Shown: positions 2,060 through 5,715 of the stretch, piece after piece
Layout: each line of letters begins with the position of its first letter
How positions within the stretch are numbered: the first letter of the stretch is position 1
IMG/VR virus record: IMGVR_UViG_2698536672_000010
Strand: one strand, 5' to 3'
Length of the DNA: 10,206 bases
Origin: a virus
Lineage: Duplodnaviria; Heunggongvirae; Uroviricota; Caudoviricetes
Notes under the pieces: model-generated
The model's input: the letters and a program-made list of their open reading frames with translations, nothing else
Databases searched by the model: none
What the model was told of the DNA's origin: nothing
Position numbers and translations under genes: made by a program

Positions 2060-2074
2060 TTACCTCTAAGGTAA
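2060..2074. promoter_or_regulatory. Operator-like palindrome A (TTACC-TCTAA-GGTAA), perfect arms
   Basis: Perfect 5-bp inverted arms with a 5-bp spacer. Sits at the predicted +1/leader of the 1712-2056 gene and overlaps its Shine-Dalgarno, so the right arm could partly be ribosome-binding sequence. Confidence 0.45.
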
Positions 2075-2102
2075 TTAAAAACCACATAAGACACGAAATC
2101 AA
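2074..2102 (-). promoter_or_regulatory. Putative sigma70 promoter for the leftward gene block starting at 2056
   Basis: On the minus strand: TTGATT (plus 2097-2102), 17-nt spacer, TTTAAT (plus 2074-2079). Flanked by palindrome B upstream and palindrome A at +1. Confidence 0.35.
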
Positions 2103-2120
2103 TAGATCTAAGAACATTTT

Positions 2121-2137
2121 GTTACCTATTGGGTAAC
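2121..2137. promoter_or_regulatory. Operator-like palindrome B (GTTACC-TATTG-GGTAAC), perfect 6-bp arms
   Basis: Perfect inverted repeat read directly from the sequence. Centre lies about 62 bp upstream of the predicted start of the promoter at 2074-2102. Confidence 0.5.
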
Positions 2138-2148
2138 TATTGAGGCGT

Positions 2149-2168
2149 AAAAAAATGCGCTATCGCGC
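2149..2168 (-). terminator. Putative intrinsic terminator ending the replication operon
   Basis: Minus-strand reading gives GCGC-GATA-GCGC hairpin followed by A and seven T (plus-strand A-run 2149-2155), directly after the P stop at 2174. Stem is only 4 bp, so strength is uncertain. Confidence 0.35.
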
Positions 2169-2173
2169 TGGTA

Positions 2174-2974
2174 TTACTTGATAAATCCTGCTGCCTTTCC
2201 TCGCCTGTATTCCTCCATCAGCCACTGCGCCGGTGTTATTCCCCCCAGGGTGGCGGCGTTAGGCATGCACCCGAAACTTCGCCCTGGTGGATGGTAAACG
2301 TCTCTCCCTGTGTCCGGAGGTGTACTCATGGGTTCTGGCTTTGCCTGTATGCTGATCACCGGATCGGGTATCTGCTGTCCGGAAGCCACCTTTTTCGCCC
2401 AATCATCGAGCAACCTGCGCGCGTGTTTCTCAACCTCAATCTCGCTAAGCTGGCGCTGATACATTGCACGGCGGGTATCACATACGACCCAGTACATAAC
2501 CGGATGCCGCCACGGGAATCTTTCGGGACCACCAGGATATAAACTTTTTTCCTTGCTGTACCGGTGAAACTCCGCCATCACATCGTCAATGGTGACGCCA
2601 AGAACCATCTTGCTGTCTTTACACCACTTGATGAATTGCCCTGGCGACGGCCAGAACGGAGACTCACTGGCGCGAGCGTGGCGCATACCAGCAGAAACCT
2701 GTTCACGGGTTCGGATCCCACCTTCGGCAAACGCAGCAATCCACTGCTGTTTTGCAGCAACTTCCTGCTCTGGCGTCTTCAGGTTGGTTACCACTGCCGC
2801 CGGAAACAGTTGTTTCAGCTGTTTGAAAAGGGCATCAACAAGCCTCTCTGCTGACATGTTCACCACATTGTCATTGTTGACGTACTGATGCTCATAACCT
2901 GACATGCGAGAAAGGGCTTCTCCGTCACGGTTTTGTATCGCGGTAAAAACGTTGTTCACAAGAAATCCTCCCAT
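2174..2974 (-). CDS. P: Replication protein P homologue (lambda P-like DnaB helicase loader)
   Basis: Aligns by eye with lambda P as I recall it: window LFKQLKQLFPAAVV...QQWIAAFAEGGIRTREQVSAGMRHARASESPFWPSPGQFIKWCKD vs lambda FSQLLATFPASLAN...RRQWVLAFRENGITTMEQVNAGMRVARRQNRPFLPSPGQFVAWCRE. Likely true start is GTG at 2959 (GGAGGA 6 nt upstream), overlapping the O-like stop as GTGA; 2974 is the longest-ORF ATG. Confidence 0.85.
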   Translation of the reverse strand: MGGFLVNNVFTAIQNRDGEALSRMSGYEHQYVNNDNVVNMSAERLVDALFKQLKQLFPAAVVTNLKTPEQEVAAKQQWIAAFAEGGIRTREQVSAGMRHARASESPFWPSPGQFIKWCKDSKMVLGVTIDDVMAEFHRYSKEKSLYPGGPERFPWRHPVMYWVVCDTRRAMYQRQLSEIEVEKHARRLLDDWAKKVASGQQIPDPVISIQAKPEPMSTPPDTGRDVYHPPGRSFGCMPNAATLGGITPAQWLMEEYRRGKAAGFIK

Positions 2975-3771
2975 GCTTCAGGGCTGTTCCAGTGCGGAAC
3001 GTTGTTATCAGGTAATGTTGATTGCTTCTGTCTGCTAATCTGCAGCCGCCTTGCCAGCTTCTGCTCCCACTGTGCCTGATGGTATGCCTTACCCTCAGCC
3101 ATCCAGTAAATTCTGAACTCTGCAAGTTCCTGTGCCGTTGGCAGACTGTCCAGGTAGATCCCCTGCAATGAGCTTTTCCGAAGAAAGTCATCTGATGGCT
3201 GCCATTGTTCATGCATGACAAATTTGCCTAATTGCCCTGGCCCACCAGGAGGAACAAAGTTATTCATCACGGCGTTGTTTGCGCCGGGGTCATGAGGCAC
3301 AGAATCCCCGCTTTTTGTCCTGCTCTCCCTCTCTTGGTTAAATGACTGGTTATATGACTGGTTCTGGATCCCGTTTTTGGGATCATTCAACATCCCGTTT
3401 TTGGGATCATTCAACATCCCGTTTTTGGGTATATTCCCATTTTCGGTAACATTACCGTTTTCGGGTTCATTACCCCCTTCCCGGTTGCCTTTAATGTTCC
3501 CGTTTTTGGTTATATTAAGAGAGAAAACCCGCACTCTTTTCGTCGCTCCCTTTCTCTCTCCGGTATCTGAAATAAGCCCCATTTTCATGAGCGATATAAG
3601 CCCGGCCTGCACGGTTTTTTTATTCAGGCAAGTGTCTTTAACGAGGCGTTCTATGCTGGGGTAGCAGAGGTTATATTCATCGGCTCTGTCAGCCATCGAG
3701 AGCAGTATGAGCTTTAATGACGAGCTACCTGGATCTGTCTCCCAGGCCCAATCTGTTGCATGTCTGCTCAT
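2956..3771 (-). CDS. Replication initiator, O-like (winged-helix N-terminus, Asn-rich repetitive linker, C-terminal domain)
   Basis: 271-aa ORF immediately upstream of and coupled to the P homologue. GGAG Shine-Dalgarno 8 nt upstream of the ATG at 3771. N-terminus LKLILLSMADRADEYNLCYPSIERLVKDTCLNKKTVQAGLISLMKMGLISDTG looks like a winged-helix DNA-binding domain. Central linker is encoded by the iteron-like repeats. C-terminal region could be DnaT-like (uncertain recollection). Confidence 0.65.
   Translation of the reverse strand: MSRHATDWAWETDPGSSSLKLILLSMADRADEYNLCYPSIERLVKDTCLNKKTVQAGLISLMKMGLISDTGERKGATKRVRVFSLNITKNGNIKGNREGGNEPENGNVTENGNIPKNGMLNDPKNGMLNDPKNGIQNQSYNQSFNQERESRTKSGDSVPHDPGANNAVMNNFVPPGGPGQLGKFVMHEQWQPSDDFLRKSSLQGIYLDSLPTAQELAEFRIYWMAEGKAYHQAQWEQKLARRLQISRQKQSTLPDNNVPHWNSPEAWEDFL
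3340..3515. repeat. Iteron-like direct-repeat array inside the O-like gene (candidate replication origin)
   Basis: Core CC(C)GTTTT(T/C)GG occurs six times: 3370, 3394, 3418, 3436 (CCCATTTTCGG), 3455 and 3499. The first two copies are a perfect 24-bp tandem (CCCGTTTTTGGGATCATTCAACAT at 3370-3393 and 3394-3417). TGACTGGTT is also duplicated at 3342 and 3355. The repeats are in frame and encode the PKNGMLND linker. Confidence 0.55.
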
Positions 3772-3786
3772 GATTAATCTCCGCTA

Positions 3787-3987
3787 TCAGCTTGAATGTT
3801 GTGGGGAGGAATTAATCATGATCTGCTTAATCTCTGCCCTGATGCGACGGTTTGATTCCATGGTGCACTCAACACAGTGTCCGTTGTAAACCCAGCGTTC
3901 ACTGTCATGTCCGTGCTTACATGGTTTTCCGGTGTAGTAGCGTTTAAGTCCGCGCTTTGCGGCATCAATACGTGTAATGATTTCCAT
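3787..3987 (-). CDS. Small zinc-binding protein (Cys/His cluster), unknown function, in the cII position
   Basis: Preferred start is the ATG at 3987 (MEIITRIDAAKRGLKRYYTGKPCKHGHDSERWVYNGHCVEC...), with AGGG upstream. The longest ORF extends to 4050 but lacks a ribosome-binding site. Motif C-K-H-G-H ... N-G-H-C-V-E-C suggests a zinc ribbon or minimal HNH-like fold. Confidence 0.45.
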   Translation of the reverse strand: MEIITRIDAAKRGLKRYYTGKPCKHGHDSERWVYNGHCVECTMESNRRIRAEIKQIMINSSPQHSS

Positions 3988-4067
3988 GGTAAGCCCTGTT
4001 ATTAGTATTGGGATTACGGTCATTTTGTGCTGACACAAAAAAAAGATCAACCAGATTTGGTTATTTA

Positions 4068-4082
4068 TTACCTTTGAGGTAC
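4068..4082. promoter_or_regulatory. Operator-like palindrome C (TTACC-TTTGA-GGTAC), one mismatch
   Basis: Same family as A/B. Centre about 60 bp upstream of a candidate minus-strand promoter (TTGATC at plus 4045-4050, 17-nt spacer, CAAAAT at plus 4022-4027) that would drive the zinc-binding gene. Confidence 0.35.
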
Positions 4083-4090
4083 GAATAGAT

Positions 4091-4115
4091 ATGAAAAGAC
4101 CGCCGGGTGGCGGTC
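4091..4115 (-). terminator. Putative intrinsic terminator after the Cro-like gene
   Basis: Perfect hairpin GACCGCC-GGGT-GGCGGTC at 4098-4115. On the minus strand it is followed by TTTTCAT (plus-strand AAAA at 4094-4097). The T-run is short, so it may be a partial terminator or attenuator. Confidence 0.45.
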
Positions 4116-4137
4116 TACAGAGGGTTGTAGCTGGATA

Positions 4138-4368
4138 TCATGAGTAGAAGAAGTATGCCAGTTCTGCTTTTGAGCGCAGCCATTGTCTTGTTTTACAGGC
4201 TTTAAAAAGCCCATTCATCAATACTTTACCTGGCATTTTGCGCTTACCTGTTAAGTGAGTCTGGATATAGTGACTCGTCGTTCCGGCTTCCTGTGCGAAG
4301 GCTTCACGCTCATCCGGAGTAAGTGCAAGCCAGTGCTTTTTGAAATCGAAATGTCCGTTATCGCTCAT
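4138..4368 (-). CDS. Cro-like small HTH DNA-binding protein
   Basis: 76-aa ORF transcribed divergently from the CI-like repressor. Segment TPDEREAFAQEAGTTSHYIQTHLTGKRK has the pattern of a Cro/YdaS-type helix-turn-helix. First gene of the leftward replication operon. Confidence 0.6.
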   Translation of the reverse strand: MSDNGHFDFKKHWLALTPDEREAFAQEAGTTSHYIQTHLTGKRKMPGKVLMNGLFKACKTRQWLRSKAELAYFFYS

Positions 4369-4404
4369 AGCTATTGCCTGATATTTATTTCAGATAATAA
4401 ATAT

Positions 4405-4467
4405 TCACCCATAAGGTAACAAAAATCAAGGATAGTTACCTATGAGGTGCATTTACCTGTTGGGTAA
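4405..4467. promoter_or_regulatory. Tripartite operator region between the Cro-like and CI-like genes (palindromes D, E, F) with divergent promoters
   Basis: D 4405-4419 TCACC-CATAA-GGTAA (1 mismatch). E 4436-4450 TTACC-TATGA-GGTGC (2 mismatches). F 4453-4467 TTACC-TGTTG-GGTAA (perfect). Candidate minus-strand -35 TTGATT at plus 4424-4429, with D in its spacer/-10 region. Candidate plus-strand -35 elements TTGCTT (4470) and TTGAAT (4480) lie just right of F. Confidence 0.5.
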
Positions 4468-4522
4468 TATTGCTTTAAATTGAATCATCTACTGATTCAT
4501 ATATGAGGCGATTTTCCAGAAA

Positions 4523-5107
4523 ATGAAAAGTATCCAGGACGTCCGCAGGCAAAATCTCAACGACTTGATCGACCGTGAATTCAATGGTGTTCAGACGCGG
4601 ATGGCAGAAAAACTTGGAACTCAGGCAAATCTGGTAAACCGCTGGGCTCTTGGCAAGAAGGTTATCGGCGACCAGGTTGCGCGAAAAATTGAAGCTGCCG
4701 CCAATAAACCCCGTAACTGGCTTGATATCGATCGCTCGCTTTCTCAGGAAGGTTTTCAGCCTGTCGGCCCAAGCGACATTGGTCAGCTGGCGGCTCACAA
4801 CCTGGAACGCTGGATGAGCGAAAGCCGCGACCTTTCAACACAGGGAAAACTTCACCGCGCATCCGGCGTCGCCCAGGTGACAATCAGCCGCCTGTTAAAC
4901 AATGAGGTCAGCGTTTCCATTTCCACCCTGGAGAATGTTGCATCCGCATTCGGGCGTCACGGCTATGAATTACTGATTCACCCGCACGACCCTGCGACTA
5001 TCAACTATGACCGCTCGCGCTACGCATTGTTACCCGAAACAGAGAAGGCAAAGATCGAAAGTTACATTGAATTTGTCATCAGCCAGAACGAAAAAAACAA
5101 ACAATAA
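4523..5107 (+). CDS. CI-like prophage repressor with two XRE-type HTH domains and no LexA-like peptidase domain
   Basis: 194-aa ORF. First HTH around GVQTRMAEKLGTQANLVNRWALGKK, second around GKLHRASGVAQVTISRLLNNEVSVSISTLENVASAFG. No S24 Ser/Lys dyad motif seen. Divergent from the Cro-like gene and followed by a strong terminator. Confidence 0.7.
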   Translation: MKSIQDVRRQNLNDLIDREFNGVQTRMAEKLGTQANLVNRWALGKKVIGDQVARKIEAAANKPRNWLDIDRSLSQEGFQPVGPSDIGQLAAHNLERWMSESRDLSTQGKLHRASGVAQVTISRLLNNEVSVSISTLENVASAFGRHGYELLIHPHDPATINYDRSRYALLPETEKAKIESYIEFVISQNEKNKQ

Positions 5108-5127
5108 AATCATATTTTTCAGTAAGT

Positions 5128-5153
5128 AAGCCGCCTCATGGCGGCTTTTTTAT
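5128..5153 (+). terminator. Rho-independent terminator after the repressor gene
   Basis: Hairpin AAGCCGCC-TCAT-GGCGGCTT at 5128-5147 followed by TTTTTTATT, located 21 nt after the repressor stop. Confidence 0.7.
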
Positions 5154-5164
5154 TGCCAGCAAGA

Positions 5165-5241
5165 TTACCTTATGGGTGATTTTTTTAACTCATATCTATT
5201 GACATCAAACCAGATACGCATAATCATTACCTCAACGGTAA
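5165..5241 (+). promoter_or_regulatory. Early-left (PL-like) promoter of the recombination operon, flanked by palindromes G and H
   Basis: G 5165-5179 TTACC-TTATG-GGTGA (1 mismatch). -35 TTGACA at 5199-5204. -10 is ambiguous: CATAAT at 5219-5224 (14-nt spacer) or AATCAT at 5222-5227 (17-nt spacer). H 5227-5241 TTACC-TCAAC-GGTAA (perfect) lies at the predicted +1. Confidence 0.45.
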
Positions 5242-5260
5242 CAGACCGAGGTAACAAATT

Positions 5261-5413
5261 ATGCAGTGGAAAATCATCAACGGTTGGTACTGCGTTACTG
5301 CATGCGGATTCATGAGCTGGAAGTTCCGCACCTTACAGGAAGGCATTAAGTGGGCTTTCGTCAGCAAAGAAGCTCGCGATGTGGCCAACGATAACGAGAT
5401 ATGGGAGGGCTGA
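5261..5413 (+). CDS. Small hypothetical protein (50 aa), first gene of the recombination operon; below the track length cutoff
   Basis: ATG at 5261 with GAGGT 9 nt upstream. Translation MQWKIINGWYCVTACGFMSWKFRTLQEGIKWAFVSKEARDVANDNEIWEG, stop TGA at 5411-5413, 2 nt before the next start. No family recognised. Confidence 0.35.
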   Translation: MQWKIINGWYCVTACGFMSWKFRTLQEGIKWAFVSKEARDVANDNEIWEG

Positions 5414-5415
5414 TA

Positions 5416-5715
5416 ATGAACGTTAATCAGCAGAAAAATCTTCAAAAAATCATGCAGGCATTTGACAAGGACTACCACCTGTCAGAACAGCTATATGACC
5501 GACAAGTTGAACTGATTGAGAGCATCCGACTTCATCAACTGTCATCAACTTTCGACGTTGTAACAGGCAAAGGCGTTCGTCAGGAAGTACTGGAGGCTGC
5601 TAAAGACAGCCCTGAGTTCGAAGAACTGATGGATGCCTATCGGCGAGAGGCAATGGCAATTATCGCCCGCTGGGATCTGGCGGATCAGCTTGATGGACAG
5701 AAGGACGCGGCATGA
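5416..5715 (+). CDS. Hypothetical protein (99 aa), coupled upstream of the exonuclease
   Basis: ATG at 5416 with GGGAGGG Shine-Dalgarno 6 nt upstream; the track's 5401 start lies inside that Shine-Dalgarno. Stop overlaps the exonuclease start as ATGA. Acidic C-terminus; no domain recognised. Confidence 0.55.
   Translation: MNVNQQKNLQKIMQAFDKDYHLSEQLYDRQVELIESIRLHQLSSTFDVVTGKGVRQEVLEAAKDSPEFEELMDAYRREAMAIIARWDLADQLDGQKDAA

Follow-up and report, generated by a model that had tools for sequence, protein, structure and literature searches.

Why does one 15-bp palindrome, TTACC-N5-GGTAA, recur between the genes of a temperate phage, and which protein reads it? The stretch analysed here (the window, 10,206 nt) is the early/immunity region of a phiV10/epsilon15-like temperate podophage (Uetakevirus), an E. 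coli prophage integrated beside guaA, and it is 97-98% identical to phiV10, phiv142-3, ZX5 and PAS61. The initial annotation had listed eight sites, A to H, as apparent operators of the immunity repressor ("dual-HTH CI-like or Cro-like protein"). A rescan finds all eight in the mismatch classes claimed, including the perfect sites at 2060-2074, 4453-4467 and 5227-5241. Site B is likewise perfect, but had been placed at 2121-2137, while the 15-bp motif occupies 2122-2136. The putative operators are as follows.

2060..2074, operator A, perfect, TTACCTCTAAGGTAA, downstream member of the B/A pair
2122..2136, operator B, perfect, TTACCTATTGGGTAA, upstream member of the B/A pair
4068..4082, operator C, one mismatch, minus strand GTACCTCAAAGGTAA, a lone site with one half degenerate
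4405..4419, operator D, one mismatch, TCACCCATAAGGTAA, spanning a PR-like promoter's spacer and part of its -35
4436..4450, operator E, two mismatches, TTACCTATGAGGTGC, the middle of a three-site operator
4453..4467, operator F, perfect, TTACCTGTTGGGTAA, the site closest to the repressor gene
5165..5179, operator G, one mismatch, TTACCTTATGGGTGA, upstream member of the PL pair
5227..5241, operator H, perfect, TTACCTCAACGGTAA, downstream member of the PL pair

The repeat is real and not a product of chance. Against dinucleotide-preserving shuffles of the window, four perfect sites were observed where 0.01 are expected; at one mismatch or fewer the figures are 8 and 0.18, and at two or fewer 12 and 2.6. 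No shuffle reached the observed count at any of these three levels. By our own gene model of the window, intergenic sequence makes up 7.2% of it, yet holds 7 of the 8 matches with at most one mismatch (binomial P = 7.5e-8). The claim that no site lies inside a gene calls for slight amendment: one 1-mismatch match (149-163) and three 2-mismatch matches (1329, 4244 and 5750) fall in coding sequence, in about the number that chance would give, and none of the four recurs in relatives. The central base of the palindrome is A or T in all eight sites and in 97% of 72 perfect sites from nine related genomes, and an independent repeat finder recovered the same palindrome family.

Conservation in related prophages is extensive, with the same motif in the same places in nine related genomes. 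Genomes with the motif at these positions include phiV10, phiv142-3, Tyrion, SPC32H and epsilon15, along with a prophage of Serratia ficaria and a further two contigs; among 5-N-5 palindromes sought de novo, this motif ranks first by frequency in the window and in each of three distant loci tested. The operator sequence is invariant across the phage family. Among 80 near-identical IMG/VR loci, the majority base reaches a fraction of 0.998-0.999 in half-site columns and 0.74-0.87 in spacer columns, figures taken from pairs with at most one mismatch per site (73-76 of the 80 loci passed), which slightly favours the half-sites. Of the 152 pairs in these loci, 149 are spaced at exactly 62 bp. A complete prophage that is 99.7% identical in the immunity region places 13 of its 16 sites in intergenic sequence (7.8% of the span, P = 1.7e-12); the intergenic and coding counts are 13 vs 5 in SPC32H and 14 vs 1 in phiv142-3, and all perfect sites of these two phages are intergenic. 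The motif also precedes terS, the portal operon, the antirepressor/tail-spike region, the lysis cassette and int in complete relatives.

The motif is already known as an annotated repressor-binding site in Salmonella phage epsilon15, and the finding is solid but ordinary. The epsilon15 record (NC_004775.2; Kropinski et al. 2007) carries protein_bind features labelled "repressor / lysogeny", possibly predictions only, on the same TTACC-N5-GGTAA, often extended to ATTACC..GGTAAT. These features cover the equivalents of G/H and A/B as well as late-gene regions. In both phages, sites follow the repressor gene and precede the early-left operon, a 62-bp pair precedes the gene next after the replication genes, and further sites lie at late operons; the repressor and the cro-like protein are homologous. 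At the early-left promoter of epsilon15, by contrast, the pair is followed 76 bp downstream by a third site, and the middle site of its D-E-F counterpart is perfect, while E in the window is degenerate. The three epsilon15 sites between the repressor and cro-like genes are present in its sequence without annotation in the record, and the record of phiV10, the closest curated relative, has no operator annotation.

The candidate reader of the sites is encoded amid them.

4523..5107, plus strand, repressor gene Rep, 194 aa, assigned by homology to SPC32H Rep and the ZX5 repressor
5128..5147, plus strand, Rho-independent terminator of the repressor gene, a terminator call also annotated in phiV10

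Rep is identical to the ZX5 repressor ORF21 at 193 of 194 positions, and overexpression of ORF21 eliminates free phage and lowers the mRNAs of holin and endolysin by over 99.9% (PMC9782041). Rep is also a full-length homologue of SPC32H Rep (PDB 5D50, E = 4e-42), the identity by domain being 53% (N-terminal), 31% (middle) and 49% (C-terminal segment), and it is only 43% identical to epsilon15 gp38. The DNA-binding domain at the N-terminus holds a conserved segment, N36-L-V-N-R-W41, kept as N-L-V/I-N/S-R-W in Reps as distant as 42% identity; the C-terminal segment (tetramerisation, Ant-binding) is conserved as well. According to two published accounts, SPC32H Rep is a tetramer that binds palindromic DNA and is disassembled by Ant, one tetramer being enough for repression in the words of this secondary source (PMC9638917), and it combines an N-terminal DNA-binding domain with a C-terminal tetramerisation fold that its authors link to DNA looping (PMC9986798).

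A domain search detects no Peptidase_S24 domain in Rep, and we rejected a CI-like repressor in favour of the Rep family. Pfam reads the middle domain as HTH_3; this supposed second HTH (residues 106-147) is instead the counterpart of Rep's middle dimerisation domain, the DNA-binding domain being the N-terminal one (PMC9986798). Of the original "dual-HTH CI-like" description, the immunity repressor stands, while the CI-like character and the second HTH do not. By homology, Rep is a member of a tetrameric, antirepressor-controlled family, predicted to be inactivated by an antirepressor rather than by self-cleavage. The homology of Rep and the "repressor" annotation of the same motif in epsilon15 together support the earlier prediction that the sites are immunity repressor operators. 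We regard the eight palindromes as predicted operators of Rep, the lysogeny repressor at 4523-5107, with a probability of about 0.88.

The promoter-like elements and remaining features around the sites show where a bound repressor would act.

5199..5227, plus strand, PL-like promoter for the early-left operon (recombination and other genes), from scanner and conservation
2074..2102, minus strand, putative sigma-70 promoter P_AB of the DUF1064/eae/ead operon
4022..4050, minus strand, putative promoter of small gene 3787-3987 and of the replication genes, read from sequence
4097..4116, minus strand, Rho-independent terminator of the cro-like gene, a terminator call also annotated in phiV10
4138..4368, minus strand, cro-like gene, 76 aa (phiV10 gp41, epsilon15 gp39), candidate second binder
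4394..4422, minus strand, PR-like promoter of the cro-like gene (-35 TTGTTA 4422-4417, -10 TATTAT 4399-4394), from the promoter scanner

The PL-like promoter (-35 TTGACA 5199-5204, 17-nt spacer, -10 AATCAT 5222-5227) matches 10 of 12 consensus positions and is conserved across relatives. Operator G, perfect in most relatives, lies 19 nt upstream of its -35, and operator H, 62 bp from G centre to centre, overlaps the final -10 base and the likely transcription start. P_AB, read directly from the sequence, has the layout of PL, kept across genomes: operator B sits 19 nt upstream of the -35 (TTGATT 2102-2097), followed by a 17-nt spacer, a -10-like TTTAAT (2079-2074) and operator A, 62 bp from B centre to centre. 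The -10 is a weak match because the usual A at position 2 is absent; the -35 hexamer shows no variation in 57 distinct sequences. Operator A overlaps the GAGG ribosome-binding site of the DUF1064 gene (ATG 2056, minus strand), together with the likely transcription start and the final -10-like base. It is kept throughout the nine related genomes and in those 73 of 80 IMG/VR loci that yielded the B/A pair. The common arrangement (operator, 19 nt, TTGAnn, 17 nt, -10 abutting the second operator) is present in each genome that has these pairs.

Operator C lies between the terminator of the cro-like gene, which divides that gene from the replication operon, and a promoter-like element whose -35 (TTGATC 4050-4045) begins 17 nt downstream and is followed by a 17-nt spacer and a -10, CAAAAT (4027-4022). 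This element matches 8 of 12 consensus positions, under the scanner threshold; neither it nor P_AB was called by the consensus promoter scanner, and the -10 elements of both are weak. Its GGTTGATC...CAAAAT is kept in most relatives compared. A counterpart of C is found in 6 of 8 genomes compared, with one half degenerate in 5 of these 6, and at the same offset in 55 of 80 IMG/VR loci. A/B and C thus adjoin promoter-like elements of other operons, as expected from the earlier view that the sites reach promoters outside the classical switch.

These positions bear on two other explanations. In each pair the upstream operator sits near -62, a classic class I activator position, and the motif precedes late operons in relatives, as would suit an activator site for another phage regulator, be it a PerC-like or AlpA-like protein of the window or the pre-terS regulator of relatives. 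Yet the partner operators overlie the -10 and the start of transcription and D overlies the PR core, which are places suited to repression; the sites cluster most densely to either side of the repressor gene, and both the annotation in epsilon15 and the phenotype of Rep overexpression favour Rep. An activator is very improbable. Alternatively, the palindromes might be hairpins or terminators in RNA, targets of methylation or restriction, sites for host factors, or chance: they could form 5-bp stems, and the phage encodes an MT-A70 methyltransferase (8099-8761). However, such stems are just 5 bp, A/T-rich and without a T-run, the actual terminators are separate G+C-rich hairpins, and Rfam gives no match for the palindromes. 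Several sites would not be transcribed, because they lie upstream of promoters; a methylation target would not shun coding sequence, and the shuffles and positional conservation exclude chance. We consider this group of explanations exceedingly improbable.

The remaining competitor concerns the three-site operator D-E-F between the repressor and cro-like genes. D and F occur in all 80 IMG/VR loci, always 48 bp apart, and the distance of E is 17 bp to F and 31 bp to D. Site E is not callable by its own sequence, because 2-mismatch matches are mostly due to chance; its support is the fixed position 17 bp from F and a counterpart that is perfect in epsilon15 and SPC32H. Operator F overlaps the -35 of a candidate promoter of the repressor gene itself (TTGGGT 4460-4465, 17 nt, AATCAT 4483-4488), a possible assignment.

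The cro-like protein could read the palindromes instead of or together with Rep, as do lambda Cro and CI. Its gene occupies the place of cro and diverges from the repressor gene across D-E-F, and its product matches phrog_35, "transcriptional repressor" (E = 5.6e-13). The segment EAGTTSHYIQTHLT, taken as the helix-turn-helix, is invariant in five aligned phages that all have the motif. An AF2 model has five helices, and its top fold matches are HTH domains (YdaS N-domain, 434 repressor DNA-binding domain, C-proteins); these matches are not significant, however (E >= 1), and Pfam and PDB contain no sequence match to the protein. Conservation alone does not decide which protein reads the sites, because the cro-like protein (76-100% identical across relatives) is at least as conserved as Rep. 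Other evidence argues against it: the epsilon15 annotators gave the sites to the repressor, Rep overexpression alone silences late genes that have the motif upstream (PMC9782041), and about 14 sites genome-wide, late operons included, are not expected of a Cro-type protein. Recognition of the whole set by the cro-like protein is therefore very improbable, and it is unlikely as the sole binder; that it shares the D-E-F sites with Rep is quite possible, at somewhat less than even odds.

With Rep as the reader, its paired N-terminal helix-turn-helix domains would contact both TTACC half-sites. At G/H and B/A, the operator at about +1, covering the -10 and the start of transcription, would block RNA polymerase, and the second, centred near -62 and exactly 62 bp away, would raise occupancy by binding cooperatively, plausibly through both DNA-binding units of a single Rep tetramer. 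Operator D would occlude the cro-like gene's promoter, E and F, at the putative promoter of the repressor gene itself, would probably mediate autoregulation, and the weak site C, after the terminator, may control or help control the replication operon. With the motif before the terS, portal, antirepressor/tail-spike, lysis and int units, Rep would silence each unit directly.

The lac repressor is a tetramer with two DNA-binding units whose operators O1 and O3 flank the promoter 92 bp apart. It is a functional analogy: the protein is unrelated, the 62-bp spacing in the window is shorter than 92 bp, and looping by Rep is conjecture. Similarly, the C1 repressor of phage P1 acts at many operators scattered over the phage genome, a single repressor with dispersed operators as proposed here, although the protein is unrelated. 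With lambda OR/OL, the window shares divergent repressor and cro-like genes with three palindromic sites between them, further sites at the early-left promoter beyond the repressor gene, and one site that occludes the cro-like promoter. Unlike in lambda, Rep is without an S24 self-cleavage domain, the early-left promoter is bracketed by two sites 62 bp apart rather than three adjacent ones, and further operators serve other operons and, among relatives, late genes. An N- or Q-type antiterminator is not evident; instead, terminators followed by separately operated promoter-like elements split the rightward genes.

A close mechanistic parallel is the Rep/Ant/LexA switch of SPC32H (PDB 5D50, 5D4Z; Kim & Ryu 2013, Kim et al. 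2016, as described in PMC9638917 and PMC9986798), which shares a full-length homologous Rep, the identical motif at matching places, and an Ant with a LexA box in the window's nearest complete relative; the Reps are 31-53% identical by domain. The Ant of phiv142-3 is 87% identical to that of SPC32H, and a LexA box and a Rep site lie in front of its gene. Induction would accordingly proceed through LexA-controlled Ant and not through self-cleavage of the repressor. The ant gene is located outside the present window, and the module is known here from relatives. The E. coli phages of the group also differ from SPC32H in encoding, in addition, a Bro-N "antirepressor".

Over most of its length, the window shares 97-98% identity with the Escherichia phages phiv142-3, phiV10, PAS61, and ZX5; over about half of its length or less, it shares approximately 79% identity with Enterobacter phage Tyrion and with the SPN1S/SPC32H group of Salmonella phages. 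These phages all belong to the genus Uetakevirus, the epsilon15-like temperate podophages. The window is organized as follows:

2056-1712: DUF1064 (resolvase-like) gene, then ea-type genes
3987-2174, minus strand: small gene, then DnaT/O-like and P-like replication genes
4097-4116: terminator after the cro-like gene
4138-4368, minus strand: cro-like gene, divergent from the repressor gene
4523-5107, plus strand: repressor gene, encoding Rep
5261-8952, plus strand: early-left operon with RecE-like, RecT, AlpA-like, PerC-like, and MT-A70 methylase genes
8956-10206, minus strand: integrase gene

The 1.3-kb immunity region (3980-5270) is found at ≥95% identity in 541 of 5,426 complete E. coli genomes, nearly always as a single chromosomal copy. 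Strain 04-00955 carries a complete 40-kb prophage that adjoins guaA, a location of integration also reported for ZX5. Positions 1-726 are unmatched in phiv142-3, the closest phage, with which the alignment starts at 726, and other relatives align from 1040-1490; such a divergent left end is typical of mosaicism in the ea-gene region. The RecE-like nuclease (5712-6533) and RecT (6530-7411) are encoded by separate overlapping genes in the window and in phiv142-3, and the phiV10 record instead gives one fused gene of 1,761 bp.

The palindrome TTACC-N5-GGTAA is strongly overrepresented in this region. Four perfect copies (starting at 2060, 2122, 4453, and 5227) compare with a mean of 0.01 in dinucleotide-preserving shuffles of the window, 8 matches with up to one mismatch compare with 0.18 expected, and 12 matches with up to two mismatches compare with 2.6 expected. 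The observed count was reached in no shuffle at any of the three thresholds. An independent repeat finder recovered the same palindrome family, and when all 5-N-5 palindromes were counted de novo, TTACC with a 5-nt spacer ranked first. All eight sites listed in the initial annotation are present, with the 15-bp motif of site B located at 2122-2136 and not at 2121-2137:

A, 2060-2074: perfect
B, 2122-2136: perfect
C, 4068-4082: one mismatch
D, 4405-4419: one mismatch
E, 4436-4450: two mismatches
F, 4453-4467: perfect
G, 5165-5179: one mismatch
H, 5227-5241: perfect

Under a gene model that combines the ORF list with the phiV10 and phiv142-3 annotations, intergenic sequence makes up 7.2% of the window and contains 7 of the 8 matches with at most one mismatch (P = 7.5e-8). 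The earlier statement that no sites were noticed inside genes overlooked four coding matches, one with a single mismatch (149-163) and three with two (1329, 4244, and 5750), which occur at chance level and are not repeated in related phages. Every one of the eight window sites has A or T at its center, as do 97% of 72 perfect sites, and the base flanking the half-sites is mostly A or T, which extends the motif to ATTACC..W..GGTAAT.

The motif is found at equivalent places in related prophages and in 80 IMG/VR loci. The complete genomes scanned carry 8 to 10 perfect sites per approximately 39-kb genome, all of them extragenic if the start codon of terS is placed appropriately. A pair of sites spaced 18 bp apart precedes the annotated terS start in epsilon15, SPC32H, Tyrion, and phiv142-3, and falls inside a longer annotated terS in phiV10 (87-119) and the 04-00955 RefSeq prophage (13967-13999), where the longer starts are probably over-extended. 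Other positions shared by the complete phages are those ahead of the portal operon, the lysis cassette, and int, the antirepressor/tail-spike region, the early-left promoter, the interval between the repressor and cro-like genes, a position past the cro-like terminator, and a pair past the replication genes. The layout of the window, with a repressor/cro-like triplet (17 bp, then 30 or 31 bp), two 62-bp pairs, and a weak site past the cro-like terminator, recurs in most of nine genomes and the 80 IMG/VR loci. The intergenic bias also holds across a full prophage, as 13 of the 16 matches with at most one mismatch in the complete 04-00955 prophage are intergenic (P = 1.7e-12), a full-prophage scan of the kind proposed in the initial annotation. 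Matches with two mismatches in this prophage are noise, with 21 in coding sequence versus 1 in intergenic sequence.

Sequence variation at these sites is unevenly distributed. Across the 80 IMG/VR contigs, the half-site columns are nearly invariant (majority fraction, 0.998-0.999; slightly biased by ascertainment, since at most one mismatch per site was required), and those of the 5-bp spacer rank with the most variable of the region (0.74-0.87). The Rep proteins of these contigs are at least 99% identical; the search used a diverse Rep alignment and gave no more distant loci. The motif is also unchanged beside distant Rep homologs of 52-59% identity, including that of a Serratia ficaria prophage. 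Fixed half-sites with a free spacer are the pattern that would be expected of a dimeric helix-turn-helix site touched only at its half-sites. Readings of the palindromes as RNA hairpins, methylation sites, or chance occurrences are excluded by the shuffles, the intergenic bias, the terminators, the conservation across 80 loci, and an Rfam scan of the window, which returned no matches. Within the window, G is an exact inverted copy of D (15 of 15 positions, mismatch and spacer included; 21 nt at 90% with flanks), and the G of most relatives has another spacer and forms a perfect palindrome. This identity could reflect an exchange between operator regions or a single base change.

The same motif is already annotated as a repressor-binding site in epsilon15. 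The epsilon15 record (NC_004775.2) contains protein_bind features labeled 'repressor / lysogeny' at 32479-94, 32554-70, and 32616-32, which together (32479-32632) sit between the repressor gene and the early-left operon, and a further feature at 35906-22, past the replication genes, is equivalent to B. Additional repressor features are placed before terS, before gp3, and between gp19 and the tail-fibre gene. These annotated sites read ATTACC-N5-GGTAAT, and the window sites fit them with 0 to 2 mismatches and the same A/T central base. The window shares with the epsilon15/SPC32H type its motif, a full-length Rep homolog, and gene-relative site positions. We consider the finding correct and well supported, with the palindromes very probably Rep operators, but it rediscovers a motif annotated in epsilon15 and belonging to a repressor family whose structure is solved and whose mode of induction has been described. 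In the immunity region of the phiV10 reference record, only terminators are annotated and no operators; RefSeq prophage copies label the repressor with a generic name ('helix-turn-helix domain-containing protein') and leave the operators unannotated. That phiV10-type annotations lack these operators may itself be new relative to the accessible literature. Another consensus, ATTACCWDWWNGGTAAT, had no match in the literature searched, and nothing here rests on it.

Rep (194 amino acids) matches the SPC32H repressor over residues 1-190 (PDB 5D50_A; phmmer, E = 4.1e-42), and PDB 5D4Z matches its C-terminal part. SPC32H Rep is described as a tetramer that binds palindromic sites with paired DNA-binding domains from different dimers, is taken apart by the tetrameric antirepressor Ant, and suffices for repression as a single tetramer (PMC9638917). 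It consists of an N-terminal DNA-binding domain, a middle dimerization domain, and a C-terminal p53-like tetramerization domain that also binds Ant and has a fold found in loop-forming regulators; its mechanism of repression "has not been extensively characterized" (PMC9986798). Only domains of the helix-turn-helix type (HTH_3, HTH_26, and a weak YdaS_toxin) are found by Pfam in Rep, with no Peptidase_S24 self-cleavage domain. The initial annotation had considered a CI-like repressor, which is contradicted by the missing S24 domain and by the full-length alignment to SPC32H Rep. The operators differ as well: lambda has tripartite operators only at the two early promoters on either side of its repressor gene, whereas the early-left promoter of the window has two sites 62 bp apart, and sites are also present at two other operons (A/B and C) and, in complete relatives, at late operons. 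The significant HTH_3 match covers Rep residues 106-147, which correspond to the middle domain of SPC32H Rep, and the N-terminal domain has only a subthreshold YdaS_toxin match (residues 21-61). Given the domain order of SPC32H Rep, the HTH_3 match therefore sits in the dimerization domain and not in the DNA-reading domain, and annotation by domain matches would misplace the latter. An N-terminal segment, NLVNRW, and a C-terminal segment are conserved in relatives, and we take NLVNRW to be the putative recognition helix.

The function of Rep as the immunity repressor is in line with its near identity (193 of 194 residues) to ORF21 of phage ZX5, whose overexpression abolished free phage and brought the transcripts for holin and endolysin down by over 99.9%, in a study that defined no operators (PMC9782041). 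This phenotype, the repressing positions of the sites, and the epsilon15 annotation argue against a sole binder other than Rep, so that exclusive binding by the cro-like protein, another phage regulator, or a host factor is unlikely. The cro-like protein (76 amino acids) may nevertheless share the sites with Rep, D-E-F in particular. It belongs by sequence match to a family of phage 'transcriptional repressor' proteins, its identity among relatives is 76-100% with an invariant presumed helix-turn-helix segment, and it is modeled with five helices; the best matches of a fold search are helix-turn-helix domains of which none is significant. Co-variation was assessed with Rep homologs down to 52% identity and three distant loci, in which altered recognition helices were sought. 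No operator change accompanies Rep divergence, and the motif is constant in all three distant loci, so the invariance of the operator leaves Rep and the cro-like protein inseparable by co-variation.

Two pairs of sites bracket promoter-like elements in the same manner:

Plus strand, early-left promoter: G (5165-5179), 19 nt, TTGACA (5199-5204), 17 nt, AATCAT (5222-5227), H (5227-5241)
Minus strand, DUF1064-operon promoter: B, 19 nt, TTGATT (2102-2097), 17 nt, TTTAAT (2079-2074) abutting A

G and H flank the best promoter match of the region, and the last T of AATCAT is the first base of H. A also overlaps the GAGG ribosome-binding site, 3 nt ahead of the DUF1064 ATG. The order of operator, -35, -10, and operator is maintained at both loci in every genome possessing the pairs, and the spacing is exactly 62 bp from center to center in 149 of 152 pairs, placing one operator near +1 and the other near -62. 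An operator near +1 would exclude or trap RNA polymerase, and a single Rep tetramer could hold both sites of a pair, one with each of its DNA-binding units. We assign a probability of roughly 0.4 to this model, in which a single tetramer spans both operators; it is consistent with the sufficiency of one tetramer and with the loop-associated C-terminal fold of SPC32H Rep. The 62-bp bracket offers a concrete, testable geometry for repression by an unusual tetrameric Rep. A short A/T tract directly past the upstream operator of each pair (5180-5186, TTTTTTT, at the early-left promoter; 2117-2120, AAAAT in minus-strand reading, at B/A; about -54 to -48) is present in every genome examined, and may act as an UP element or bend the DNA in a way that aids operator co-operation.

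The remaining sites lie around the repressor and cro-like genes, where D extends over the spacer and into the -35 of a PR-like promoter:

Minus strand, PR-like promoter of the cro-like gene: TTGTTA (4422-4417), TATTAT (4399-4394)

E and F are 17 bp apart beside the repressor gene, and the spacing of the triplet (17 bp, then 30 or 31 bp) is conserved in relatives. F overlaps what could be the -35 of a promoter for the repressor gene itself, a position that suggests autoregulation. A specific candidate for this promoter (TTGGGT, 17 nt, AATCAT) was rejected, being unconserved in Tyrion or SPC32H. Site C is weak; a matching site is present in 6 of the 8 genomes compared, with one degenerate half in 5 of these. 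It lies past the cro-like terminator, 17 nt upstream of a conserved TTGATC-17-CAAAAT element, and probably controls the replication operon. C has no partner 62 bp downstream in the window, and could co-operate with D-E-F, approximately 340-390 bp away. A plus-strand promoter ending at C, considered because the sequences flanking A and C resemble each other over 27 nt, lacks an acceptable -35, and we treat the similarity as an A/T-rich resemblance.

Terminators split the rightward genes into units, each with its own operator-bearing promoter-like element, and no N-type antiterminator was seen. This arrangement agrees with the earlier proposal that the palindromes extend to promoters outside the classical switch. 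Within the DnaT/O-like gene (2956-3771, minus strand), a direct repeat of 19-24 nt (TCCCGTTTTTGGGATCATT...) occurs five times at positions 3368-3516, with two of the copies being identical tandem 24-mers. The repeats encode a repeated NGMLNDPK segment and look like a lambda-style replication origin, with iterons within the initiator gene.

The operator half-sites, the NLVNRW segment, and the C-terminal Ant-binding segment are kept among Rep proteins down to approximately 43% identity, in phages of Escherichia, Salmonella, Enterobacter, and Serratia. This invariance makes genus-wide cross-immunity and cross-induction possible, such that a prophage of any member would repress every related phage entering its host and the Ant of any member would induce all. 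That a single tetramer clamps each early promoter at about -62 and +1 as a 62-bp microloop and that the genus also forms one immunity and induction group is, taken jointly, less likely than not. We found no description of the strict 62-bp geometry or of genus-wide cross-immunity in the accessible literature. The operators open no new kind of biology, and their practical value lies in annotation: the module is present without operator labels in the 541 E. coli genomes, and transfer of the epsilon15 assignment yields a promoter/operator map for a very common E. coli prophage, together with a compact repressor/operator pair of known protein structure.

The ant gene itself lies outside the window. 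The nearest complete relative, phiv142-3, encodes an Ant that is 87% identical to that of SPC32H and whose gene is preceded by a LexA box, TACTGTATAAATATACAGT, and one palindrome; the 04-00955 prophage has an 85-amino-acid gene at the equivalent position. Upstream of ant in phiv142-3 (4758-4860) and SPC32H (19936-20030), the palindrome is located approximately 45 bp farther upstream than the LexA box, and Rep may also damp its own antirepressor gene or the divergent tail-spike promoter.
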